A DNA stretch of 41,872 nucleotides from Acidimicrobiales bacterium (GTDB taxonomy: Bacteria; Actinomycetota; Acidimicrobiia; Acidimicrobiales; VFJN01), in NCBI GenBank assembly GCA_035693765.1, contig DASSGC010000144.1, forward strand, positions 1 through 41,872, read 5' to 3'. Made by a program: the position numbers and the translations under genes. The notes under the pieces were generated by a model that ran no database searches, was not told the DNA's origin, and saw only the letters and a list, made by a program, of their open reading frames with translations. This document shows, in pieces, positions 2,566 through 34,002 of the stretch. The stretch's first letter is position 1; each line of letters opens with the position of its first letter.

Positions 2566-5001
<2,436 letters not shown>

Positions 5002-5028
5002 GATCGTGCATCTCCCCCTTGTGGGATC

Positions 5029-5745
5029 TCAGCTTGCTCTGTCTGCTTCGTGCTGCGGCTCGGCCACCCCGGCAGGGGGGAGGATCGTCCGCGTGACGTA
5101 CACCTGGCGGGCGACCCGCTGCCCGATGGTGCGGGTCTTGCCGTCGATCTCGACGACCAGCGGGCCGTCGAAGGGGTGCTTCTCGAGCACGGCCACCGCG
5201 ACCCCGGGCACGACGCCCAGGGTCCCGAGGAACGAGAGGATCTCGGCGTCGGTCGATCCCGACACCGCCACCTCGGCCACGTCACCGGGCTCGAGGTCGT
5301 ACAGCTCGGGCGTGTTGGGGAGGTCCGCGGCCTGCGGCTGCGGGATCGGGAACCCGTGCGGGCACGTCTCCGGCCGGTGCAGCGCCACGTACAGCCGGTC
5401 GGTCACCTCGTCGGGCAGGTCGTGCTCGAACGCGACGGCCAGCTCGTCCGCCTCGTTCCAGGCGTAGCCGAGCATGTCGGCCAGGAACCGCTCGACGATG
5501 CGGTGGCGGCGGATGGCGGAGATCGCCGCCCGCCGTCCCGTGTCGGTGAAGGTGACGCCCTGGTAGGGCCGATGGTCGACGAGGCCGCGGTCGGCGAGAC
5601 GCTTGACCAGCGTGGTCACCGTGCCGGGCGACAGTCCCAGCCGCTCGGCCAGGGTGCCGGTGTGGGCCTCCGAACCGTCGCGGGTGAAGCGGTAGATGGC
5701 CTTGAGGGCCTCGCGCTCGGACTTCGTGAACTCCGTGAGCTGCAT
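5029..5745 (-). CDS. DtxR/IdeR/MntR-family metal-dependent transcriptional regulator with C-terminal FeoA/SH3-like domain
   Basis: Starting from the ATG at 5745 the protein reads MQLTEFTKSEREALKAIYRF... HTGTLAERLGLSPGTVTTLVKRLADRGLV (wHTH). It continues with RRHRIVERFLADMLG...FEHDLPDEV (metal and dimerisation helix) and then a FeoA-like tail. It sits 27 bp upstream of hppA on the same strand. Confidence 0.9.
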   Translation of the reverse strand: MQLTEFTKSEREALKAIYRFTRDGSEAHTGTLAERLGLSPGTVTTLVKRLADRGLVDHRPYQGVTFTDTGRRAAISAIRRHRIVERFLADMLGYAWNEADELAVAFEHDLPDEVTDRLYVALHRPETCPHGFPIPQPQAADLPNTPELYDLEPGDVAEVAVSGSTDAEILSFLGTLGVVPGVAVAVLEKHPFDGPLVVEIDGKTRTIGQRVARQVYVTRTILPPAGVAEPQHEADRAS

Positions 5746-5855
5746 ACAGGGTTTGGCTCTCCCAAAACCCGACCTTCGGGCATTGCGATCCGCCTGATTA
5801 CCACGGCCGGCAACTCGCCCCCAAACCCGCGCTGTGCCAGACTGCGGGTCCACTG

Positions 5856-5874
5856 ATCTGACGGCGCGTCAGAT
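5856..5874. promoter_or_regulatory. 19-bp palindromic operator candidate ATCTGAC-N5-GTCAGAT (site 1)
   Basis: Sequence ATCTGACggcgcGTCAGAT lies in the divergent region between the DtxR-like gene and the DUF35/thiolase operon. The same half-sites and spacing recur at 10314-10332. Confidence 0.55.
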
Positions 5875-5880
5875 GTTGGT

Positions 5881-5915
5881 GTCGGATTCGCGTCGGATTT
5901 CGGTGTCGGATTTCG
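5881..5915. repeat. Three direct repeats GTCGGAT(T)TCG spaced 11 and 13 bp
   Basis: gtcggattcg (5881), gtcggatttcg (5892) and gtcggatttcg (5905). They lie immediately after the palindrome, about 50-85 nt upstream of the DUF35 start. Confidence 0.7.
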
Positions 5916-5965
5916 TGTCTGAGCGTGCCGGGTCCGAGGCGGCCGGTGCCGGGAGGGTCACACAC

Positions 5966-6436
5966 ATGGCGAGCACCACCACGAGGGGTCCCGTCCCGGC
6001 CGTCGACGGCTGGTTCACCACCGGCGACGAGCCCGCCCTCCTCGGCACCCGCTGCAGGTCCTGCGGCTCCGTCTTCTTCCCCCGGGAGGAGGCGTTCTGC
6101 CGCAACCCCGGCTGCGCGGGCGAGGCGTTCGACGAGGTGCCGCTGTCGCGCCGGGGGGTCGTGTGGTCGTACACCGACGCCCGCTACCAGCCGCCGCCCC
6201 CGTACCTCCCGGCCACCGATCCCTACGAGCCCTTCGCCCTGGCCGCCGTCGAGCTGGAGGCGGAGGGCCTCGTCGTGCTCGGCCAGGTCGCCGGCGGCTA
6301 CGGCGTCGACGACCTGACCGTCGGCGCCCCGGTCGAGCTGGTGGTCGAGCCGCTCTACACCGGCGAGGACGGCACCGTCCGCACGATCTGGCGGTGGAAG
6401 CCGCTCACGCCCGCCGCCGGGGAGGCCGCCACATGA
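5966..6436 (+). CDS. DUF35 Zn-ribbon/OB-fold protein (thiolase/Ltp partner)
   Basis: ATG at 5966 is preceded by GGGAGGG. It has a C-x2-C...C-x4-C ribbon (CRSCGSVFFPREEAFCRNPGC) and then an OB-fold-like region. Its stop overlaps the next start (ATGA at 6433-6436). Confidence 0.85.
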   Translation: MASTTTRGPVPAVDGWFTTGDEPALLGTRCRSCGSVFFPREEAFCRNPGCAGEAFDEVPLSRRGVVWSYTDARYQPPPPYLPATDPYEPFALAAVELEAEGLVVLGQVAGGYGVDDLTVGAPVELVVEPLYTGEDGTVRTIWRWKPLTPAAGEAAT

Positions 6437-11577: not shown

Positions 11578-12398
11578 GGGTCGCCGTCGTCCAGCACGAC
11601 ATCGTCTGGGAGGACCGGGCCGCCAACTTCGACCGGCTCGCGCCGCAGGTCGAGGCGGCCGCCGGGGCGGGCGCCCGGCTGGTGCTCCTGTCGGAGACGT
11701 TCTCGACCGGGTTCTCGATGCACACCGAGCGGACCGCCGAGCCGGAGGGCGGCCCCTCCTCCGAGTTCCTCCGGGCCCGGGCCCGGGAGCACGACGTCTG
11801 GATCGGCGGCTCGTGCCCCGAGGTGCGGGTGCCCGGCGACCCGCCGCACAACACCTTCGTGCTGGCCGGGCCGGACGGCACCGTGCATCGCTACCGCAAG
11901 GTCCACCGCTTCGGCTACGGCGGCGAGGACAAGAAGTTCGCAGCCGGGTCCGAGCGGGTGACGGTCACGGTCGACGGCCTCCGGGTGACCCTCTTCGTCT
12001 GCTACGACCTGCGGTTCGCCGACGACTGGTGGGCCGTCGCGGGCGACACCGACGCCTACCTCTGCGTGGCCAACTGGCCGTCGGCCCGCCGCCGGCACTG
12101 GCAGGCGCTGCTGGTGGCCCGGGCCATCGAGAACCAGGCCTACGTCGTGGCCTGCAACCGGGTGGGCGGCGGCGGCAAGCTCGACTACGCGGGCGACAGC
12201 ATGATCGTCGACCCGCTGGGCGAGGTGCTGGCGTCCGGCGCCGGCACCGAGGCGCTGCTGGTGGCCGACGTCGACCCCGCCGTCGTGGCGGGGGTGCGGG
12301 CGGAGTTCCCGTTCCTCGCCGACCGGAACGTCGACCGGACCGTCGACCGGATCGCCGACCGGACCGTCGACCGGACCGCCGACCCCACCGGTCGCTGA
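11574..12398 (+). CDS. Carbon-nitrogen hydrolase family protein (omega-amidase / Nit2 / YafV-like)
   Basis: GTG at 11574 overlaps the aminotransferase stop (GTGA). The sequence reads VRVAVVQHDIVWEDRAANF...LLSETFSTGF...VCYDLRFADDW (Glu-Lys-Cys triad context). The C-terminus is a DRxV repeat tail. Confidence 0.9.
   Translation: MRVAVVQHDIVWEDRAANFDRLAPQVEAAAGAGARLVLLSETFSTGFSMHTERTAEPEGGPSSEFLRARAREHDVWIGGSCPEVRVPGDPPHNTFVLAGPDGTVHRYRKVHRFGYGGEDKKFAAGSERVTVTVDGLRVTLFVCYDLRFADDWWAVAGDTDAYLCVANWPSARRRHWQALLVARAIENQAYVVACNRVGGGGKLDYAGDSMIVDPLGEVLASGAGTEALLVADVDPAVVAGVRAEFPFLADRNVDRTVDRIADRTVDRTADPTGR
12321..12392 (+). repeat. Six tandem 12-nt repeats (GACCGGACCGTC-like) encoding DRNV-DRTV-DRIA-DRTV-DRTA-DPTG
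   Basis: Read directly from the sequence. They are in frame at the 3' end of the C-N hydrolase gene. Confidence 0.9.
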
Positions 12399-12483
12399 AG
12401 GAAAGTGGTCGTACAGCATCCATCCTCGTTCAAAGACATGCCAGGCCTCGGAAACGGTTCCGGACCGTCCTAGCCTTCCCGGC

Positions 12484-14442
12484 ATGCGGTACAGCGGCGC
12501 TCCGGCAGCAGGCGGCATGGGCCCGCGCGGCTCGCTGCTCGGCGCCGACCCGGCCACGCTCGGCGACGCCCGGTTCCGCGGCGCGCTGGCCCGCCGCGTG
12601 TGGGCCTTCGCCCGGCCCTACCGGTGGCTGCTGGCGGGCTACGCCGCCCTCATCGTGGGCCAGGCGCTGGTCGGGCTCGCCCCGCCGCTGCTGTTCCGGC
12701 AGATCATCGACGAGGCGATCCCCGCGAAGGACCGCGGGCTGCTCCACCTGCTGGCCGGCGTGGCGGTGGTCACGGCCCTGGTCAGCGCCGTGCTCGCCGT
12801 CGGCGACCGCTACTGGTCGGCCCGCATCGGCGAGGGTGTCATCTACGACCTCCGGGTGGCCGTGTTCCGGCACGTCCAGCGGATGCCGATCGCCTTCTTC
12901 ACCCGCACGCAGACCGGCGCGCTGACCAGCCGCCTCAACTCCGACGTCATCGGCGCCCAGCGGGCGCTGACCGGCACCATCGGCACCGTGGCCTCCAACG
13001 CGGTCACGCTGGTCACCGTCGTGGCCGCCATGGCCGCCCTGGAGTGGCGGCTGACCGTGCTCTCCCTGATCGTGCTGCCCGCGTTCATCGTGCCCGCCAA
13101 GCGGGTCGGGCGCCGCCTGCAGGCCGTCACCCGCGAGCAGATGGACCTCAACGCCTCGCTCAACACCACCATGACCGAGCGCTTCAACGTGTCGGGCGCG
13201 CTGCTCGTGAAGCTGTTCGGCCGGGCGGCCGACGAGGAGCGGAGCTTCGCCGGACGGGCCGACGGCGTGCGCCGCACCGGCATCCGGGCCGCGCTCTACG
13301 GCCGCACGTTCTTCATCGCCCTGGGGCTCGTCGGCGCCGTCGGCACCGCCGCCGTCTACTGGATCGGTGGCCTGCAGGTGCTGTCGGAGGACATGTCGCT
13401 CGGCACCCTCGTCGCCATGGCGGCGTTCGTGGGCCGGCTGTACGGCCCGCTGACCTCCCTGACCAACGCGCGGGTCGACCTGATGAGCGCCCTCGTCTCG
13501 TTCGACCGGGTGTTCGAGGTGCTCGACGCGCCGACGCCGCTGGTCGACGCGCCGGGCGCCGTCGACCTCGGCCGCCCGCAGGGCCGCATCGAGCTGGACG
13601 GCGTGCGGTTCACCTACCCCGACCGGCCGATCATCCCAACCCTCGAGCTCGACCCCAACGTCGGCGCGCCGATCGCCCGGCGCGACGGCACGGCGGGCGA
13701 CGAAGGTACGCCGGGCGGGGCTCGCGAGGTGCTCCACGGCGTGTCGGCCACCATCGAGCCGGGCCAGCTCGTCGCCCTGGTCGGCCCGTCCGGCGGGGGC
13801 AAGACGACGCTGTCGATGCTCGTGCCGCGGCTCTACGACGTGACCGAGGGCGCCGTCCGGGTCGACGGTCACGACGTGCGCGACCTCACGCAGGACTCGC
13901 TGCACGACGCCATCGGCGTCGTCGTCCAGGACCCGCACCTGTTCCACGACACCATCGGCAACAACCTCCGCTACGCCCGCCCCGACGCCACGCCGGCCGA
14001 GGTCGAGGCCGCGGCTCGGGCGGCCCGGATCCACGGCGTGATCGCCCGGCTCCCCGACGGCTACGACACGGTGGTGGGCGAGCGGGGCTACCGCCTCTCC
14101 GGGGGCGAGAAGCAGCGGGTGGCGATCGCCCGCATGCTGCTCAAGGACCCGGCGATCGTCATCCTCGACGAGGCCACCAGCCACCTCGACAGCGAGAACG
14201 AGGCCGCGATCCAGCGGGCCCTGGCCGATGCCCTCGCCGGGCGGACCAGCATCGTCATCGCCCACCGGCTGTCGACCATCACGGCGGCAGACCAGATCCT
14301 GGTGGTCGACGACGGCCGGGTGGTCGAGCGGGGCCGGCACGCCGACCTCCTGGCCGCCGGCGGGCTGTACGCGGACCTCTACCGCACCCTCGTGCGCGAG
14401 GACGTCGGCCCCGCAGCCGCCGCGGTCGCCCTCGACGTCTGA
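12484..14442 (+). CDS. ABC exporter, fused permease/ATPase (MsbA/MdlB type)
   Basis: 652 aa. Six TM helices are followed by Walker A GPSGGGKTT, signature LSGGEKQRVAIAR and Walker B IVILDEATS. Confidence 0.93.
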   Translation: MRYSGAPAAGGMGPRGSLLGADPATLGDARFRGALARRVWAFARPYRWLLAGYAALIVGQALVGLAPPLLFRQIIDEAIPAKDRGLLHLLAGVAVVTALVSAVLAVGDRYWSARIGEGVIYDLRVAVFRHVQRMPIAFFTRTQTGALTSRLNSDVIGAQRALTGTIGTVASNAVTLVTVVAAMAALEWRLTVLSLIVLPAFIVPAKRVGRRLQAVTREQMDLNASLNTTMTERFNVSGALLVKLFGRAADEERSFAGRADGVRRTGIRAALYGRTFFIALGLVGAVGTAAVYWIGGLQVLSEDMSLGTLVAMAAFVGRLYGPLTSLTNARVDLMSALVSFDRVFEVLDAPTPLVDAPGAVDLGRPQGRIELDGVRFTYPDRPIIPTLELDPNVGAPIARRDGTAGDEGTPGGAREVLHGVSATIEPGQLVALVGPSGGGKTTLSMLVPRLYDVTEGAVRVDGHDVRDLTQDSLHDAIGVVVQDPHLFHDTIGNNLRYARPDATPAEVEAAARAARIHGVIARLPDGYDTVVGERGYRLSGGEKQRVAIARMLLKDPAIVILDEATSHLDSENEAAIQRALADALAGRTSIVIAHRLSTITAADQILVVDDGRVVERGRHADLLAAGGLYADLYRTLVREDVGPAAAAVALDV

Positions 14443-14675: not shown

Positions 14676-15434
14676 TCAGGCCGGCGCGTGCGACTTGAGG
14701 AAGGCGATGTCGTCCTTGCGGCCCTCGTCCGCGGTCTCGCAGATCACCGGGGCGGCCGCCGTGTTGACCACGGCCACCAGCAGGTCGGGGTCGATCTCGC
14801 CGGCGCCCAGGTTGGCGTGGCGGTCGCGGCCCGACCCGTGCCCGTCCTTCGAGTCGTTGCAGTGCACCAGGTCGATGCGCCCCGTGATGCCGAGGAGGCG
14901 CTCGACCGCGTCGACGAGCGCCTCGCCGGCCGCCCAGGCGTGGCAGGTGTCGAGGCAGAACCCGATGCCCGTGTCGCCGATGTGCTCCCACAGCCGGGCG
15001 ATGGTGTCGAAGTGGCGGGCCATGGCGTGGTCGCCGCCCGCGGTGTTCTCGAGGTAGATCGGGACCTCGGTCTCGACGGTGTCGAGGCCCTTGCGCCAGC
15101 GGGCGAACCCGGCCCCGGGCTCGTCGTCCTCGGTGACGTGGCCGCCGTGGACGATCACGGCCTGCGCGCCGATCTCGGCCGCGGCGTCGCACGTCTGCTG
15201 GAGGATCTTGCGCGACGGGATGCGGATCTTGTTGTTCGGCGACGCCAGGTTCACCAGGTAGGGCGCGTGCACGTAGATGGGCGTGGACGAGGCCCTGAGG
15301 GCCTCGGCGTCCTCCCGCGGCTTGGGCTTGCGCCAGCTCTGCGGGTCGCCGAGGAAGATCTGGACGATGTCGGCGCCCTCGGCGGCCGCGCTGGCGAGCG
15401 GGTCGGACGGGGGAACATGCGATCCGATGAGCAC
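14676..15434 (-). CDS. nfo: Endonuclease IV (AP endonuclease family 2)
   Basis: 252 aa with GTG start. Sequence includes IGSHV...[13 protein letters not shown]...IVHGG...YLENTAG...[12 protein letters not shown]...HCNDSKD. Confidence 0.93.
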
Positions 15435-28029: not shown

Positions 28030-28074
28030 CCCGCCGTGGGCCCCCGCCGCAGCCGCGCCCCTAGCCTGCACGTC

Positions 28075-28662
28075 ATGGCGGAGGCGGGCTGGTACCCAGA
28101 CGAGCAGGACGCCGCGCTGCTGCGGTGGTGGGACGGGCAGCAGTGGACCGGGCACGTCCGCGACGCCCGACCTGACCCGCCACCGCAGGACGCCGCGGCG
28201 GCGGCCCCCGGCCGGCGTGCGGGCGGGAAGGTCTCGACGGTCGTCGCGGTCCTGCTCGTGGCGCTGATCTGGCCGGGGTTCCCGCTGGTGATGCTCGGCG
28301 GCGGGCTGTACATCCTCAACGTGCAGCGGTCCGGCACGCCCGCGGAGGCCACGGTCACCGAGTGCCACCGCGTCACCCGCCGGAGCACCGTGTGCAACGG
28401 CACGTGGACGGTCGGCGACCTCGCCGCCGGCGGCACCGTCGTCCAGGGGACGATCGAGGGCGCCAACCGCGACGACGTGGGCGAGACCCTCGACGTCCGG
28501 GTGTCGGGCGATCGTGCGTACACGAGGTCGCTGCGGCTGCCCGTCGTCCTCATCGGCTTCGCCGCCGTGCTCCTCGCGCTGCCCCTCTTCAGCAGGGGGA
28601 AGCCGTGGATCCAGATCGTGCGCCGCCAACCTGCCGGCACCGGTCCCGAGCGCCCGGGGTGA
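28075..28662 (+). CDS. DUF2510 N-terminal domain fused to a two-TM DUF3592-like module
   Basis: MAEAGWYPDEQDAALLRWWDGQQWTGHV, a TM helix, a beta-rich segment (TVTECHRVTRRSTVCNGTWTVGD...LDVRVSGDRAY) and a second TM helix. Confidence 0.8.
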   Translation: MAEAGWYPDEQDAALLRWWDGQQWTGHVRDARPDPPPQDAAAAAPGRRAGGKVSTVVAVLLVALIWPGFPLVMLGGGLYILNVQRSGTPAEATVTECHRVTRRSTVCNGTWTVGDLAAGGTVVQGTIEGANRDDVGETLDVRVSGDRAYTRSLRLPVVLIGFAAVLLALPLFSRGKPWIQIVRRQPAGTGPERPG

Positions 28663-28683: not shown

Positions 28684-28738
28684 GCCGGGGCGCGGGTGCC
28701 GGGGCGCGGGGCCGGGGCGCGGGTGCCGGGCGGCGGGT
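28684..28738. repeat. About 4 tandem copies of GCCGGGGCGCGGGT (G-run-rich on the + strand)
   Basis: Read directly from the sequence. It fills the convergent gap between the two DUF2510 genes. Confidence 0.7.
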
Positions 28739-29460
28739 CAGGAACCGCCCGAGAACCGGGCGACGACGAACGGCAGCAGCACGATGTTCCACTGCAGCCG
28801 GGACGACAGCAGTTTCCGCTGGGGCTTCCCCGCACGTCCGTGGGTGAGCACGCAGAGCGCACCGCCGCTGTCGACCTCGGTGCCGGTGATCTCGGTCCAC
28901 GGGACGACCTTCGCGAACCGCCCGCTGTGCCTGAGCCCCTCGGGGCTGACGACGATGCCGCCGAACGTGACCGAGCCCCCGGCGGCGACCGTGGCGACCG
29001 CCTGGTCGACGATCCGCCGGCACGCGGTCGCCGTCAGCAGGTCGACGAGCCCCGTCCAGGCCGCGCGGAGCTCCTCGATCCGCTCGTCGGTCGACCCGCT
29101 GTCGAAGGTGAACTTGTCGGTCGTGTCGCCCTGGCCCAGCTTCATGCTGAACTTGGTGCCCCAGTAGGAGCCGTTGACCCAGCGGGCGACGCTCTCGAAG
29201 GCGACCCGGTCGACGGCGTCGAGGGCGAACGTGTGGCTCTTGGACGGATCCGGCCTGACGAACGCGATCCGGTCGCCGTCGGCGACGACCTCGAGACCCT
29301 TGACGGCCACGCGCACGAGGGTCGCGGCCTGCACCGCGCCGGTGTCGGGCGGTGGTGCGGGCCGGTCAGCGGCACGCACGTGTTCCGTCCACCGCTCGCC
29401 GTCCCACCACCGCAGCACGCCCGCGTCGTCCCCGTCCGGATACCAGCCTGCTTCCGCCAT
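28738..29460 (-). CDS. DUF2510 N-terminal domain protein with soluble PH-like C-terminal region
   Basis: From the ATG at 29460: MAEAGWYPDGDDAGVLRWWDGERWTEHV. This N-terminus is nearly identical to that of the convergent neighbour. Confidence 0.8.
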   Translation of the reverse strand: MAEAGWYPDGDDAGVLRWWDGERWTEHVRAADRPAPPPDTGAVQAATLVRVAVKGLEVVADGDRIAFVRPDPSKSHTFALDAVDRVAFESVARWVNGSYWGTKFSMKLGQGDTTDKFTFDSGSTDERIEELRAAWTGLVDLLTATACRRIVDQAVATVAAGGSVTFGGIVVSPEGLRHSGRFAKVVPWTEITGTEVDSGGALCVLTHGRAGKPQRKLLSSRLQWNIVLLPFVVARFSGGS

Positions 29461-29570
29461 GGCGCCAACGCTAGGGCCACACCGGCCGGTTCTACCGTCA
29501 CCCTCGGCAGGGTGCGCGACCACGCACCGAGGTCACGCGCCCGGCCCGGCCGGTCCACCGGGCGAGCGGA

Positions 29571-29834
29571 CTAGCGCGTCGGCAGACCGAACATCTCCGG
29601 CCAGGCGACGACGATGCCGATCGCGGCGGCCGCGAGCAGCGCGCCGACCGGCCAGGCCGCGACCGCGACGTAGGCCGCCATCACGAGCACGGGGAGCCAC
29701 GTCCAGTGGCGGGCCACGAGCTCGGCCGCCGCCGGGTGGCGCCGCCCGAGCACGGCGACCGCGGCGACGCGCGCGGCGAAGGCGATGACGACGAGGGCCA
29801 GGAGCAGGGCCACGCCGACCGCGAAGGCAGGCAC
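29571..29834 (-). CDS. Small hydrophobic membrane protein (87 aa)
   Basis: GC at third codon positions is very high throughout. There are 3 predicted TM helices and I recognise no family. Confidence 0.55.
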   Translation of the reverse strand: MPAFAVGVALLLALVVIAFAARVAAVAVLGRRHPAAAELVARHWTWLPVLVMAAYVAVAAWPVGALLAAAAIGIVVAWPEMFGLPTR

Positions 29835-29986
29835 GGCGCCAGTCTACGGAGCGCCGGTCGCCGAGGTCGTCGCCCGGCCGCCGCGGCCGGTCGGGCTCTC
29901 GGGTGAGCGGCGATGACGCCGAGACCGGCCCGGGGCCGACCGGGCGGAGCCGGACAGGGTCGCGCCGACCAGCGACGTGTCCCGGC

Positions 29987-30955
29987 TCACCCGGAGCCAG
30001 GACGACTGCCGGCGGCCCGGCGGTAGCGGTCCGCGAGCCGGTCGAACGCCTGGGCGAGCTCGGGGTTGTCGAGCACGTCGACGTCGACGTCCAGCAGCCC
30101 GAGGTAGAGCGCCAGCATGTGCGGTGTGTCCGATCCCACCTCCGCCACGCAGCTCCCTGCGTCGACGGGCTCGACCGCCACCGCGAGCGGTAGCTGCCGG
30201 GCGACCTGCTCGGCCGGGGCGCGGATCAGGACCCGGGCCCGGTAGCGCCAGGTTGCCGCACCGACGCCGCGCTGCACGAGGGCCGCCACGTCGTCGTCCG
30301 GGAGCCGGCGGGGGGTGAACCTCGGCCCGGTGGATCGGGGGCGCGAGAGCCGGTCCACGCGGAAGGTCCGCCAGCCGGCCCGGTCGGTGTCCCAGGCGAC
30401 GAGGTACCAGCGGCGGCCCCAGCTCACCAGCCGGTGCGGCTCGGCGGCCCGGCGGCCGGTGGGTCCGTCGTGGGTGGTGTAGTCGAACCGGAGTTGCTCG
30501 TTGGCCCGGATCGCCGTGGCGATCACGGTCAGGACCTCGGCGTCGACGGTGGGCCCGGCGCCCGGAAGGGTGACCGTGGCGCCGTGCACCGCACCGACCC
30601 GGTGCCGCAGCCGGGACGGCAGCACCTGTTCCAGCTTGGCCAGGGCCCGGACCGAGCTCTCCTCGATCCCGGCCACGGTGCCCCCGGCGCAGCTCCGCAG
30701 CCCGATCGCGACCGCCACCGCCTCGTCGTCGTCCAGCAGCAGCGGGGGCAGCGCCGCCCCGGCGCCGAGCCGGTAGCCGCCGGCGACGCCCGGTGTCGCG
30801 TGCACGGGGTAGCCCAGGTTGCGCAGGCGCGTGATGTCCGCGCGGACCGTCCGGGTGGTCACGCCGAGCCGCTCCGCCAGGGCCGGCCCGGTCCAGCCGG
30901 GGCGCGCCTGGAGCAGGGAGAGCAGCCGGAGCAGCCGTGCGGAGGTTGTCAGCAT
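29987..30955 (-). CDS. YafY-family HTH-WYL-WCX transcriptional regulator
   Basis: From the ATG at 30955: MLTTSARLLRLLSLLQARPGWTGPALAERLGVTTRTVRADITRLRNLGYPV. The WYL core reads PHRLVSWGRRWYLVAWDTDRAGWRTFRVDRL. Confidence 0.9.
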   Translation of the reverse strand: MLTTSARLLRLLSLLQARPGWTGPALAERLGVTTRTVRADITRLRNLGYPVHATPGVAGGYRLGAGAALPPLLLDDDEAVAVAIGLRSCAGGTVAGIEESSVRALAKLEQVLPSRLRHRVGAVHGATVTLPGAGPTVDAEVLTVIATAIRANEQLRFDYTTHDGPTGRRAAEPHRLVSWGRRWYLVAWDTDRAGWRTFRVDRLSRPRSTGPRFTPRRLPDDDVAALVQRGVGAATWRYRARVLIRAPAEQVARQLPLAVAVEPVDAGSCVAEVGSDTPHMLALYLGLLDVDVDVLDNPELAQAFDRLADRYRRAAGSRPGSG

Positions 30956-30974
30956 GGCGGAAGTCTCGCAGCGG

Positions 30975-30997
30975 TTGCGGAAGGGGACGTTCCGCAA
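30975..30997. promoter_or_regulatory. Operator candidate TTGCGGAA-N7-TTCCGCAA (proximal to the WYL regulator)
   Basis: Perfect 8-bp arms, 19 nt from the regulator start codon. Confidence 0.6.
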
Positions 30998-31111
30998 GCC
31001 CGCACGGCCGGAGAATCTCGGGACCGCGGACAACCGGTCGGCGGCCTCAGGTGTCAGGGGTGTGATGACACGCATGACGAGTGAAGATCCGCGCCCGGGA
31101 GCTCCCGCACA

Positions 31112-31134
31112 TCGCGGAACGATCCCTTCCGCAA
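31112..31134. promoter_or_regulatory. Operator candidate TCGCGGAA-N7-TTCCGCAA (proximal to the epoxide hydrolase)
   Basis: Same motif and spacing as 30975-30997, 20 nt from the hydrolase ATG. Confidence 0.6.
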
Positions 31135-31154
31135 CGGTTCCTACGGTCGGTGCC

Positions 31155-32342
31155 ATGACGCACGACACCCGTGATCCGAACGCCATCCGCCCGTTCCGCA
31201 TCGACGTCCCGGAGTCGGCGGTGGACGACCTGCGGCGCCGGCTGGCCGACACCCGGTGGCCCGACGACGCGCCGGGCGACCCCGCAGCCGCGGGCTGGGA
31301 GCGCGGCGTCCCGGCCGGCTACCTGCGGGACCTCGCGGACTACTGGCAGTCCTCGTACGACTGGCGCGCCCAGGAGGCCGGGCTCAACTCCTGCGACCAG
31401 TTCACGACCGAGATCGACGGCCAGACCATCCACTTCCTGCACGTGCGGTCGCCGGAGCCGGATGCGCTGCCGTTGCTGATCACGCACGGGTACCCGAGCT
31501 CGGTGGTCGAGTTCGCCGAGCTGGTCGGCCCCCTCACCGATCCGCGGTCCGCCGGCGGCGACCCCGCCGAGGCCTTCCACGTGGTGGTGCCGTCGCTGCC
31601 CGGGTTCGGGTTCTCGACCCCGGTGCGCGACACCGGCTGGGAGCTGGGCCGGACCACCGCGGCGTTCGCCGAGCTCATGCGGCGGCTCGGCTACGACCGG
31701 TACGGCGCGCACGGCGGCGACATCGGCGCCGGGATCACGGGCCGGTTGGGCGCCACCGAGCCCGACCACGTCGTCGGCACCCACGTCGTGAGCGACCCGG
31801 GGTCGCTCGGCCTCGCCGGTGAGCACATCCCGGTGCCCGACGACCTCACCGAGGCCGAGCAGGCCCGGCTGCAGCAGGCCCGCGACGCCTGGACGGCCGA
31901 GCGCGGCTACCTCGACCTGCAGTCGCACCGGCCGCAGACGATCGGGTTCGCCCTCACCGACTCGCCGGTCGGCCAGCTCGCCTGGATCACCGAGAAGTTC
32001 CAGACCTGGACCAACCCCGCGGCGGCCACCCCCGACGAGGCGGTCGGTCGCGACCGGCTGCTGACGAACGTCAGCCTCTACTGGTTCACCCGCACCGGGG
32101 CGACGGCCGCCCAGTTCCTCTACGAGACCGCCCACTCCGGGCTGGACTGGGTTGCGCCGTCGGGCGTCCCCGCCGGCTGGGCCGTGTTCAACACCGACCC
32201 GCTGCTGCGGCGCGTCCTCGATCCTGACCACCGGATCGAGCACTGGTCCGAGTTCGCCGAAGGCGGGCACTTCGCGGGCATGGAGGCGCCGGACCTGCTG
32301 GTCGGCGACCTGCGAGCGTTCTTCCGTAGCGTCAGGGCATGA
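31155..32342 (+). CDS. Epoxide hydrolase (microsomal-type, EHN N-terminal domain + alpha/beta hydrolase)
   Basis: IRPFRIDVPESAVDDLRRRLADTRWPD..., HGYP oxyanion motif (LLITHGYPSS) and nucleophile elbow GAHGGDIGAG. Confidence 0.92.
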   Translation: MTHDTRDPNAIRPFRIDVPESAVDDLRRRLADTRWPDDAPGDPAAAGWERGVPAGYLRDLADYWQSSYDWRAQEAGLNSCDQFTTEIDGQTIHFLHVRSPEPDALPLLITHGYPSSVVEFAELVGPLTDPRSAGGDPAEAFHVVVPSLPGFGFSTPVRDTGWELGRTTAAFAELMRRLGYDRYGAHGGDIGAGITGRLGATEPDHVVGTHVVSDPGSLGLAGEHIPVPDDLTEAEQARLQQARDAWTAERGYLDLQSHRPQTIGFALTDSPVGQLAWITEKFQTWTNPAAATPDEAVGRDRLLTNVSLYWFTRTGATAAQFLYETAHSGLDWVAPSGVPAGWAVFNTDPLLRRVLDPDHRIEHWSEFAEGGHFAGMEAPDLLVGDLRAFFRSVRA

Positions 32343-33442
32343 CCCGGTTGCCGGTGCTCGGGCAGCGTGCGCTCAACCGGGCGCTGCTCGGGCGGCAGCA
32401 CCTGCTCCGGCGGGCCGCCATGCCCGCGGTCGAGATGATCGAGCACCTCGTCGGCCTGCAGGCGCAGGCGCCGCTGGCGCCCTATGTCGGGCTGTGGAGC
32501 CGGTTGGGCGGCTTCGACGCGGACGAGCTGGCCGGCCTGGCCACGTCGCGCCAGGTCGTACGCGCCTCGCTGATGCGCAACACCGTCCACCTGGTCAGCG
32601 CCCCTGACTGCCTGGCGATCCGCCCGCTGGTGCAACCGGTCGTGTCGCAGGGGTTCGCCGGCCACTTCGGTCGGGCGATGGGCGGTGTCGACGTCGAGGC
32701 GGTGGTGGCGGCCGGGCGGGAGCTGCTCGAACAGGAGTCGAGGACGCGGGCGCAGCTCCGCGAGCTGCTCGGCGCGCGCTGGCCGGACACGGACGCGGAC
32801 GCGCTCGCGTACGCCGTCAGCCATCTGGTGCCCGCCGCGCACGTGACGCCGCGCGGCGTGTGGGGCCGGACGGGCCCCGCGGCGCTGACGACGATCGAGT
32901 CCTGGCTCGGCCGGCCGCTCGAGCCCCGGCCGTCGATCGACGAGCTGGTGCGGCGGTACCTGCGCGCCTTCGGGCCCGCGACGGTGATGGACGTCCAGGC
33001 GTGGTGCGGGCTCACCCGGCTGCGCGAGGTCGTCGAGCGGGTGGGCCTGCGTGCGTACGTCGACGCCGCCGGCCACGACCTCTACGACGTCGCCGACGGG
33101 CCGCTGCCGGATCCCGAGACACCGGCACCGGTGCGGTTCCTGCCCGAGTACGACAACGTGCTGCTGTCCCACGCCGACCGCACCCGGGTGATCCCGGACG
33201 GCCGGCCGGTACCGCTCCCGCCCGGCAACGGCGCCTCGGCGGGCACGGTCCTGGTCGACGGTGTCTTCGCCGCGACGTGGCGTGTCCGTCGCCAGCGCCG
33301 GTCCGCCGCGCTGACCGTCGAGCCGTTCGCCGGGCTCTCGACGGCGGCCCACGCGGAGCTCGTCGACGAGGGCGGCCGGCTGCTCTCCTTCGTGGCTCCC
33401 GATGCCGAGGCGGGCGACGTGCGCGTGGTCGCGGCGGCGTAG
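32339..33442 (+). CDS. Winged-helix YcaQ/AlkZ-family (HTH_42, DUF1006) DNA glycosylase, AlkZ-like QxQ subtype
   Basis: ATG overlaps the hydrolase stop (ATGA). The sequence reads NRALLGRQHLLRR...MIEHLVGLQAQAPLAPYVGLWSRL, with Q41-A42-Q43 at nt 32459-32467. VRASLMRNTVHLV and YLRAFGPATVMDVQAWCGL are typical of the family. Confidence 0.85.
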   Translation: MTRLPVLGQRALNRALLGRQHLLRRAAMPAVEMIEHLVGLQAQAPLAPYVGLWSRLGGFDADELAGLATSRQVVRASLMRNTVHLVSAPDCLAIRPLVQPVVSQGFAGHFGRAMGGVDVEAVVAAGRELLEQESRTRAQLRELLGARWPDTDADALAYAVSHLVPAAHVTPRGVWGRTGPAALTTIESWLGRPLEPRPSIDELVRRYLRAFGPATVMDVQAWCGLTRLREVVERVGLRAYVDAAGHDLYDVADGPLPDPETPAPVRFLPEYDNVLLSHADRTRVIPDGRPVPLPPGNGASAGTVLVDGVFAATWRVRRQRRSAALTVEPFAGLSTAAHAELVDEGGRLLSFVAPDAEAGDVRVVAAA

Positions 33443-33540
33443 CCCGGGCCCGGTCGCCCGGGCGCCCGGGATCCGGTTGCGGATGGTGGACGGACCCCGC
33501 AGGTCAGGGATCGCGGCGACGTCACGGGTGCCGGCGGGGG

Positions 33541-33810
33541 TCAGAACCTCGCGGTGTCCGGCATCTCGCCCGGCACTGTCACGGCGTCGCCGATGTCGGC
33601 GATGGCGCGGAGCGCCTGTCCGAGAGCGATCGGCCACGTGGCCAGGAGGAGGACGATCGGCCCGCCGAACAGCAGCACACCGGCGGTCTCCCAGCCCCCC
33701 TCGACCGAGATGGCCCACGATATGACGCCGAACCCCGCAGAGACGACGCCGACCACGCCGAGCAACATCAGCACCAAGGACCAGGTGCGCAACGTCTTGT
33801 AACGAGACAT
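33541..33810 (-). CDS. Small membrane protein (89 aa)
   Basis: AAGGGAGAG RBS upstream of the ATG at 33810. Two to three TM helices, and I recognise no family. Confidence 0.6.
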   Translation of the reverse strand: MSRYKTLRTWSLVLMLLGVVGVVSAGFGVISWAISVEGGWETAGVLLFGGPIVLLLATWPIALGQALRAIADIGDAVTVPGEMPDTARF

Positions 33811-33955
33811 CTGCTCTCCCTTCTGCCGTTCCCGGCTGCAGACCCGCCACGGACGACACCGTCATCGACGTCGACGGCGTCCCCGACCGTAGGGGTGGAC
33901 CTCATGCGGGGCGTCACCCCGGGAGGGTGACGTCGCACGGCGGGCGCGCAACGAC

Positions 33956-33990
33956 GTCAGGGCCCACCCGCGACGCGGGTGGGCCCTGAC
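33956..33990. terminator. Perfect 17-bp-arm hairpin
   Basis: GTCAGGGCCCACCCGCG-a-CGCGGGTGGGCCCTGAC lies 13 nt past the stop (34003) of the PLDc_N/SHOCT gene. Confidence 0.6.
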
Positions 33991-34002
33991 GGGTTGGCCA
34001 GG

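Follow-up and report, generated by a model that had tools for sequence, protein, structure and literature searches.

What role could AlkZ-like DNA glycosylases, known as self-resistance enzymes in genotoxin clusters, have when their genes lie outside such clusters? The question is raised by a three-gene cassette at positions 29987-33442 of a 41.9-kb stretch of DNA from an Acidimicrobiales bacterium (contig DASSGC010000144.1), which was analysed at its full length and is hereafter called the window. A gene for a WYL-domain regulator is followed there by a divergent operon that encodes an epoxide hydrolase (EH) and an AlkZ-like protein. We propose, with a probability of about one half, that these genes form a self-contained, stress-inducible detoxification-and-repair cassette against epoxide DNA alkylators. 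This proposal rests on gene content, translational coupling, conservation, a shared operator and the modularity of the regulator family, from which expression, binding and enzyme activity of the members are predicted. The three genes are:

29987..30955, minus strand: HTH-WYL-WCX transcription factor of 322 amino acids, a SiwR-like single-chain WYL regulator (Pfam, PDB relatives, orthologue alignment)
31155..32342, plus strand: EHN-type (microsomal-like) alpha/beta epoxide hydrolase of 395 amino acids (PF06441, PF00561, matches to PDB entries 5f4z and 4i19)
32339..33442, plus strand: AlkZ-like (HTH_42, PF06224) putative DNA glycosylase of 367 amino acids with Q41-A42-Q43 (Pfam, profile, AlphaFold/Foldseek)

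The three identities had been proposed from the letters of the sequence and their translations, in what we call the sequence-only reading, and Pfam and PDB matches confirmed them; NCBIfam gave an informative family for none of the three proteins. The overlap claimed for the two operon genes is also present: the EH stop codon and the ATG of the AlkZ-like gene share 4 nt as ATGA, within GCATGACC, and the AlkZ-like gene is translationally coupled to EH through it. The EH start at ATG 31155 was placed from its homologues. The longest open reading frame (ORF) of the regulator spans 29987..31252 on the minus strand, but an alignment of 14 orthologues (67-80% identity) puts the start at MLTTSARLL and we therefore took 29987-30955 as the gene. 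As anticipated, no biosynthetic genes accompany the cassette: Pfam scans of 30 other ORFs of the window revealed no polyketide synthase, nonribosomal peptide synthetase or other gene of a biosynthetic gene cluster (BGC), the neighbours being housekeeping genes or genes of unknown function.

Conservation of the pairing in other genomes had been set beforehand as the test for the sequence-only reading, and the pairing does recur. We collected 80 genome loci anchored on the glycosylase subfamily and examined them by tblastn and our own gene call, which was based on third-position GC content and judged overlaps from the C-terminal 65% of an ORF alone. The AlkZ-like gene was immediately preceded by EH in 27 of the 80 genomes, with a gap of -4 nt in most, and the regulator was divergent in 25 of those 27 loci. 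The EH-AlkZ loci belong to Kribbella, two Amycolatopsis lineages, a metagenome-assembled genome (MAG) of Kribbellaceae, Microbispora, Nonomuraea, and Limnocylindria and Chloroflexia MAGs; those with a divergent regulator include Kribbella, Amycolatopsis, Microbispora and one Chloroflexota MAG. Recurrence of this gene order in 27 of 80 independent genomes, usually with the 4-nt overlap retained, shows that the arrangement is not due to chance, and since the flanking genes vary between genera, the cassette is autonomous. In a neighbour-joining tree the glycosylases of the complete triads group together in a single region of the clade, where Kribbella shows losses. Variants of the layout were also seen. 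In a Chloroflexia MAG (L075, 3284-5745) the AlkZ-like gene is preceded by a tandem duplicate of EH and the regulator is missing, while a Nonomuraea locus (L060) combines an EH-AlkZ pair with a further regulator-EH pair, which lies downstream at a distance of about 6 kb (4871-5992; 11857-13029). Where EH is lacking, the same-strand upstream partner varies: an aldo-keto reductase or a LysE exporter, each with a -4 overlap, or MerB-like, MFS, MarR or YjbR proteins (L046, L068, L070, L069, L081, L041, L044, L045).

The locus looks different when it is approached from the regulator. A second set, anchored on this gene, comprised 84 loci (80 metagenome loci and 4 genomes), 73 of which were informative. 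The four genome orthologues, from Thermomonospora, Allorhizocola, Micromonospora and a MAG, are 68-79% identical to the regulator of the window, and all of them are divergent from an EHN hydrolase gene with the same operator between the two. In the three of these genomes that can be read beyond EH no glycosylase gene follows, and the Allorhizocola contig ends too near EH to tell. Overall, EH is the partner in 44 of the 73 informative loci, and 31 loci are readable beyond it, with a glycosylase gene after EH in 7. In the remaining 29 loci the regulator, of 53-65% identity, stands back to back with cargo other than EH: MFS efflux pumps in 14 loci, DinB/DinB_2 proteins in 8 (regulators of 53-57% identity), glyoxalase/bleomycin-resistance VOC proteins in 3, two of which are then followed by an AlkZ-like gene, and an AlkZ-like gene alone, directly divergent from the regulator, in one (L132); no partner was identified in the last 3. 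The metagenome loci in which the glycosylase joins the family without EH are L144 (43-1487) and L150 (2-1426), where it lies behind a 123-amino-acid glyoxalase/bleomycin-resistance-like gene, and L132 (746-1916), where the regulator is a paralogous WYL protein. A tree of the regulators separates the cargo types by clade, but EH-only and EH-plus-glycosylase loci are interleaved in it, and the nearest relative of the window regulator (L083) has no glycosylase. These counts, the interleaving and the varied placements of AlkZ-like genes indicate that regulator and EH form the core module and that the glycosylase was recruited repeatedly into cassettes of this regulator family, where it follows EH in separate regulator clades. 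Thus the three-gene module of the sequence-only reading does recur, but its conserved unit is the regulator with EH, the glycosylase being optional. Among close regulator paralogues the cargo gene is exchanged modularly, between EH, MFS pump, DinB-like, VOC and AlkZ-like genes.

What these loci share is a palindrome between the divergent genes. In the window, the regulatory elements are:

30962..30967, minus strand: -10-like hexamer GAGACT of the regulator promoter, 6 nt before the regulator start codon (read from the sequence)
30975..30997, no strand: operator O1, TTGCGGAA-GGGGACG-TTCCGCAA, a perfect inverted repeat whose 8-nt arms enclose a 7-nt spacer (inverted repeat I8)
31112..31134, no strand: operator O2, TCGCGGAA-CGATCCC-TTCCGCAA, the second copy, on the EH promoter (direct repeat D1, inverted repeat I1)
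31142..31147, plus strand: hexamer TACGGT, the -10 element of the EH/AlkZ-like operon, separated from O2 and from the ATG by 7 nt each (read from the sequence)

The pattern GCGGAA-N5-9-TTCCGC matches only O1 and O2 in the whole window, with 0 matches expected from shuffled sequences, and it is found at the homologous position in 23 triad loci. When the intergenic regions between regulator and EH were aligned, the palindrome TTGCGGAAG-N5-CTTCCGCAA was present in every triad locus, with a consensus core GGA(A/C)-N7-(G/T)TCC placed 11 nt from a TANNNT -10 element. We measured this geometry in the 103 loci with enough upstream sequence, using the core pattern GGA(A/C/T)-N7-(A/G/T)TCC. In 91 of the 103 the core is found no more than 70 nt from the regulator start; among these 91, its distance to the regulator start is 23-24 nt in 79 and its distance to the cargo-side TANNNT is exactly 11 nt in 85. 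All non-EH paralogue loci share the operator core and its spacing. In L025, L027 and L059 the operator and -10 element immediately precede the AlkZ-like gene, and no regulator gene lies close by. Comparative sequence analysis thus defines the palindrome shared by the divergent genes as a conserved predicted operator.

The promoters on both sides of this operator are unusual. A scan of 29800-33700 found no canonical sigma-70 promoter, no -35 element and no intrinsic terminator. The cargo start codon lies 6-7 nt past the -10 element in the window, Kribbella and Amycolatopsis, and a mirror-image nAnnnT hexamer stands 6 nt before the regulator start, a geometry kept in other loci (AGGATG in Kribbella, for example). 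Because the distance from -10 to start is short on both sides, both mRNAs are predicted to be leaderless. A different organisation was seen in eight loci (L030, L049, L094, L104, L131, L098, L102, L118; Microbispora, a Limnocylindria MAG and related soil-metagenome contigs), where the -10 element and the EH start are separated by a conserved 5' untranslated region (GTGAGCACAAGA...GACAAGGAGA) that is about 70 nt long and includes a Shine-Dalgarno sequence, so that no leaderless transcript is predicted there. Every other locus examined has one operator, whereas the window has two, at a distance of 137 bp or about 13 turns of the helix. Its intergenic region is unusually long, 199 bp, compared with a spacer of 35-50 bp in the leaderless Kribbella, Amycolatopsis and Kribbellaceae loci, and no stop codon interrupts the EH frame along this insert. 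An operator half-site, CGTTCCGCA, also occurs inside the EH coding region (31192-31200 in the window) and in most EH genes; it encodes a conserved P-F-R-I motif and its presence there is therefore probably coincidental.

Both the operator and the regulator protein recall a characterised system. Pfam delimits HTH_11 at residues 7-62, WYL at 140-205 (E 1.2e-22) and WCX at 236-310 of the regulator, and its best sequence relatives in the PDB are PafB (E 6e-14) and PafC (E 3e-10), CapW and other WYL proteins being matched too. W195, R196, T197, F198, R199, D201 and R202 are invariant in the 14 orthologues, the motif being WRTFRVDR in the window. SiwR of Mycobacterium smegmatis is a homodimeric HTH-WYL-WCX factor (wHTH 13-65, WYL 146-215, WCX 245-320) whose gene adjoins a DinB-type operon; it recognises an imperfect palindrome of 19 bp located between -35 and -10, requires a GGA at -26, binds single-stranded DNA (ssDNA) through WYL arginines and activates upon zeocin, H2O2 and mitomycin C treatment (PMC10693628). 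Some of its orthologues adjoin glyoxalase-like genes (PMC10693628). The window regulator resembles SiwR and its dinS target (MSMEG_1359, msmeg_1357-56; PMC10693628) as a single HTH-WYL-WCX chain of about 320 residues encoded divergently beside a small operon, with a palindromic operator just upstream of the -10 element and a GGA near -26 that is conserved here by sequence comparison. In addition, its paralogues of 53-57% identity pair with DinB/DinB_2 or glyoxalase-like genes, as SiwR orthologues do. Judged by position and spacing, the invariant arginines of WRTFRxDR (R196, R199 and R202) probably correspond to R204/R207 of SiwR, which are needed for ssDNA sensing. The two systems differ in cargo, which in the window is an EHN hydrolase and an AlkZ-like gene and not a DinB-superfamily gene, and in the two operator copies of the window. 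SiwR thus appears to be the closest characterised analogue of the regulator, and by that analogy the latter would bind ssDNA and act as an activator. PafBC is also a WYL-family, ssDNA-triggered activator that binds at -26, but it is a heterodimer encoded by two tandem genes, with a large regulon and the asymmetric RecA-NDp motif, in contrast to the single gene and symmetric palindrome found here; a relaxed RecA-NDp pattern (TGTCRG-N9-11-TANNNT) had no match in the window nor upstream of the AlkZ-like genes lacking EH. The likening of the regulator to damage sensors in the sequence-only reading is thus supported by its SiwR-like architecture, operator and divergent target. The parallel drawn there with CapW and BrxR, which control defence systems, was abandoned: PADLOC returned generic WYL models only, EH and the AlkZ-like protein matched none of its defence models, and no BREX, CBASS or other phage-defence genes are neighbours.

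The match of the AlkZ-like protein to PF06224 (E 9.4e-81) extends over the entire profile, from position 1 to 329 of 329. Its context HLVGLQAQAP contains Q41-A42-Q43, which aligns to the catalytic QAQ of AlkZ (5uuj), and Q41 and Q43 are invariant in 80 of 80 relatives. R80, T82, H84, L85, R172, G212-P213-A214, R266, D272 and W314, all common to AlkZ, are equally invariant. The motifs defined by Bradley et al. (2022) are Q-phi-D for the YQL subfamily, (Q/H)-phi-Q for AZL and H-phi-(S/T)(D/E) for AZL2 (PMC9040887). Because its QAQ aligns to that of AlkZ, we classify the protein as AZL-type by motif, as the sequence-only reading had done. YQL membership was discarded, the motif not being Q-phi-D and E. 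coli YcaQ being essentially unalignable (the window LQAQ faces LQID of YcaQ with a non-significant hhalign probability of 0.5%, and with a BLASTP E of 0.018 over 38 residues), and so was AZL2 membership, the sequence being Q-A-Q-A. A family profile built from 20 relatives found AlkZ 5uuj in the PDB (E 1.9e-14) and nothing else, with no match to AlkX/YcaQ chains at E<=1. An AlphaFold model (pLDDT 76.8, pTM 0.64) gave AlkZ 5uuj as the top Foldseek match in the PDB (E 3e-11, with a moderate TM of 0.54), then AlkX/YcaQ 9zd6 (E 3.6e-9) and the Lhr C-terminal domain, and the modelled chain has the C-shaped AlkZ fold with its three winged-helix motifs. Relatives 51-70% identical to the window protein are spread over Kribbella, Amycolatopsis, Solirubrobacterales, Chloroflexota, Pyxidicoccus and others, and the clade is widespread, including Chloroflexota MAGs and many soil metagenomes. 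A very long branch joins it to AlkZ in a tree whose only references were AlkZ and E. coli YcaQ. By sequence, then, the protein belongs to a tightly conserved clade that carries an AlkZ-type motif and is remote from AlkZ itself. It shares with the AZL enzymes AlkZ, HedH4 and TxnU2/LldU5 (PMC9040887, PMC8934636, PMC7367128) the PF06224 fold, Q-phi-Q and the MRxTxHL and GPA residues. Streptomyces AZLs are variable and enriched in BGCs (PMC9040887), in contrast to the tight clade of the window, which lies outside BGCs and whose member here stands under an adjacent WYL regulator; BGC residence and high variability are tendencies of AZLs and not strict criteria. An exact look-up of the protein returned a single match, a 1.4-kb Logan contig that adds no further context.

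EH consists of an EHN domain (PF06441, E 1.4e-39) and an alpha/beta-hydrolase core (PF00561), and it matches PDB entries 5f4z and 4i19 at E~1e-117. Both are solved epoxide hydrolases of actinomycetes, which we take to come from enediyne producers. The HGxP oxyanion motif (H111-G112-x-P114), the GxDxG nucleophile motif (G187-x-D189-x-G191), the ring-opening Y252 and the catalytic H372 of GGHF are each kept in at least 97% of 61 homologues. Judged by these residues, the catalytic motifs are intact and the protein is an EHN-type epoxide hydrolase. Azinomycin B and hedamycin carry epoxide warheads. Trioxacarcin A (TXNA) and LL-D49194 alkylate guanine N7 through epoxides, and their adducts are removed by AZL enzymes (PMC8934636). 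A precedent for combining warhead hydrolysis with lesion excision is provided by the yatakemycin cluster, in which the GyrI-like cyclopropyl hydrolase YtkR7 accompanies the AlkD-like glycosylase YtkR2 (PMC5684135). The two-layer logic, hydrolysis of the warhead plus glycosylase excision of the remaining adducts, would be the same, but the families differ (GyrI-like and AlkD versus EHN and HTH_42), the yatakemycin warhead is a cyclopropane and not an epoxide, and the Ytk pair belongs to a producer BGC, in contrast to the stand-alone cassette of the window, for which alone a translationally coupled two-gene operon is seen.

In the mechanism that we propose, a homodimeric HTH-WYL-WCX regulator would bind the palindrome described above. 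On either side of this operator starts a promoter devoid of a -35 element, the two pointing away from each other and being mostly of the leaderless type, and the operator covers approximately -42 to -20 of each. Upon damage, ssDNA would bind the WYL domain, by analogy with SiwR and PafBC, and the regulator would activate its own gene and the divergent operon. EH would then hydrolyse the epoxide warhead of a DNA alkylator before the compound comes into contact with DNA and, in this lineage, the coupled AlkZ-like glycosylase would excise the remaining bulky N7-alkylguanine adducts or crosslinks. From the behaviour of SiwR, ssDNA is probably the signal, and the absence of a -35 element suggests that the regulator probably activates and does not repress; epoxide genotoxins as substrates of EH, and the activity and lesion specificity of the glycosylase, are what we infer from the families. 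The cargo of the paralogues agrees with this proposal. MFS pumps, DinB-like proteins and VOC resistance proteins are reported next to AZL genes in BGCs (PMC9040887), the same classes as those controlled by the regulator paralogues, which supports the proposal, and this toxin-resistance cargo fits a theme of genotoxin or xenobiotic defence.

Several observations weigh against a dedicated cassette against epoxide genotoxins. No glycosylase gene follows EH in 24 of the 31 loci readable beyond it, and the glycosylase subfamily occurs in unrelated contexts in 53 of the 80 genomes, so that the coupling of the two enzymes is facultative. In three Kribbella species (L006, L010, L052) the glycosylase is found at the syntenic position but regulator and EH are absent, and in Nonomuraea turkmeniaca (L027) EH is deleted and the glycosylase kept. 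EHN hydrolases accept many epoxides and the substrate could therefore be non-genotoxic. On the glycosylase side, a phmmer search against the PDB gave no match at E<=0.01, AlkZ itself being reached at E 0.02 with about 18% identity, and the AlphaFold model has low confidence around the catalytic loop (residues 42-50). The specificity for azinomycin-type agents and interstrand crosslinks put forward in the sequence-only reading finds no support here, since the clade is remote from AlkZ and tightly conserved, unlike the variable BGC-linked AZLs of Streptomyces. Finally, the position of the operator over the -35 region would suit a repressor as well. The deletion in L027 left a remnant of its own: a 34-codon EH fragment (5826-5996), in which the N-terminal IQPF..DVDDL is fused to the C-terminal ..RAYFGGLT*, still overlaps the AlkZ-like start codon, and the operator and -10 element are kept although the regulator gene is gone.

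Three other explanations were considered. The cassette could serve general detoxification of electrophiles or xenobiotics, the WYL protein sensing a small molecule or stress, EH acting on epoxides from the environment or from metabolism (oxides of alkenes or aromatics, epoxides of lipids) and the AlkZ-like gene being a loosely linked passenger that profits from co-induction. Such a role, which we hold to be unlikely, would suit the wide distribution of the regulator-EH unit, mostly in copies without the glycosylase, the heterogeneous non-EH partners of the AlkZ-like subfamily (aldo-keto reductase, LysE, MerB-like, MFS, MarR) and the ability of WYL domains to bind ligands besides ssDNA (PMC10693628). 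A passenger, however, does not readily explain that AlkZ-like genes joined cassettes of this regulator family repeatedly, as EH+AlkZ, VOC+AlkZ or AlkZ alone, and with translational coupling; the arginines of the invariant WRTFRxDR probably correspond, by position, to the ssDNA-sensing arginines of SiwR, and the paralogues with DinB cargo agree with the SiwR system, whose known inducer is genotoxic stress. The regulator could also be a repressor-type switch like CapW or BrxR that blocks both promoters until released by ssDNA or a ligand, the cargo functions staying the same and only the sign of control differing. The palindrome does lie over the would-be -35 region of both promoters, the spacing of about 13 turns between the two window operators could aid looping or stronger repression, and CapW is a wHTH-WYL-WCX repressor that senses ssDNA (PMC11662680). 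We nevertheless regard repression as rather improbable: the scan showed no recognisable -35 hexamer or sigma-70-type promoter, the proximal half-site falls at about -28 to -20, matching the -26 element of the activators SiwR and PafBC, and PADLOC placed the gene in no defence-system context. As to a remnant of BGC self-resistance, protecting a producer from its own epoxide genotoxin as AlkZ, HedH4 and TxnU do, the AZL-type Q-phi-Q motif speaks for it, and so does the nature of the closest solved relatives of EH, 5f4z and 4i19, as actinomycete enzymes from presumed enediyne producers. We reject this origin as very improbable because biosynthetic genes are lacking in the window and the cassette is kept unchanged in genera whose flanking genes differ; in addition, the family is highly conserved and widespread, in contrast to the variable, BGC-embedded AZLs (PMC9040887).

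The surroundings of the cassette show two further features. Just upstream lie two convergent paralogous DUF2510 genes, at 28036-28662 (plus strand) and 28738-29460 (minus strand), whose products both start with ...AEAGWYPD. At 14676-15434 (minus strand), 17 kb from the cassette and unlinked to it, a 252-amino-acid AP_endonuc_2 protein with a xylose isomerase-like TIM barrel is encoded, which is possibly an endonuclease IV-type AP endonuclease. A scan of 29500-34000 against Rfam gave no match at E<=0.1.

The literature that we searched contained no paper joining an AlkZ-like protein with an epoxide hydrolase, a WYL regulator with an epoxide hydrolase, or AlkZ with a WYL regulator. What is new here is a SiwR-type WYL cassette with a new cargo, and an AZL-type glycosylase in a regulated context outside a BGC. 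SiwR-type regulators were known for one cargo, DinB-like genes, and the locus links the WYL and AZL fields through an operator that is defined by sequence and predicts a regulon. Epoxide hydrolase is a chemically coherent partner for the glycosylase, which makes an inducible two-layer defence in non-producers a testable idea. More tentatively, soil Actinomycetota and some Chloroflexota might possess a modular, damage-induced resistome against the genotoxins of their neighbours, in which one SiwR-like family and its operator would control interchangeable cargo. The catalogue of operators and cargo could serve the mining of resistance genes, and indirectly of their genotoxins, across soil bacteria. 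If the idea of such a resistome is true, the EH-AlkZ-like operon would confer two-layer immunity against exogenous epoxide alkylators and would give the 'orphan' AZL glycosylases outside biosynthetic clusters their first regulatory and ecological role.

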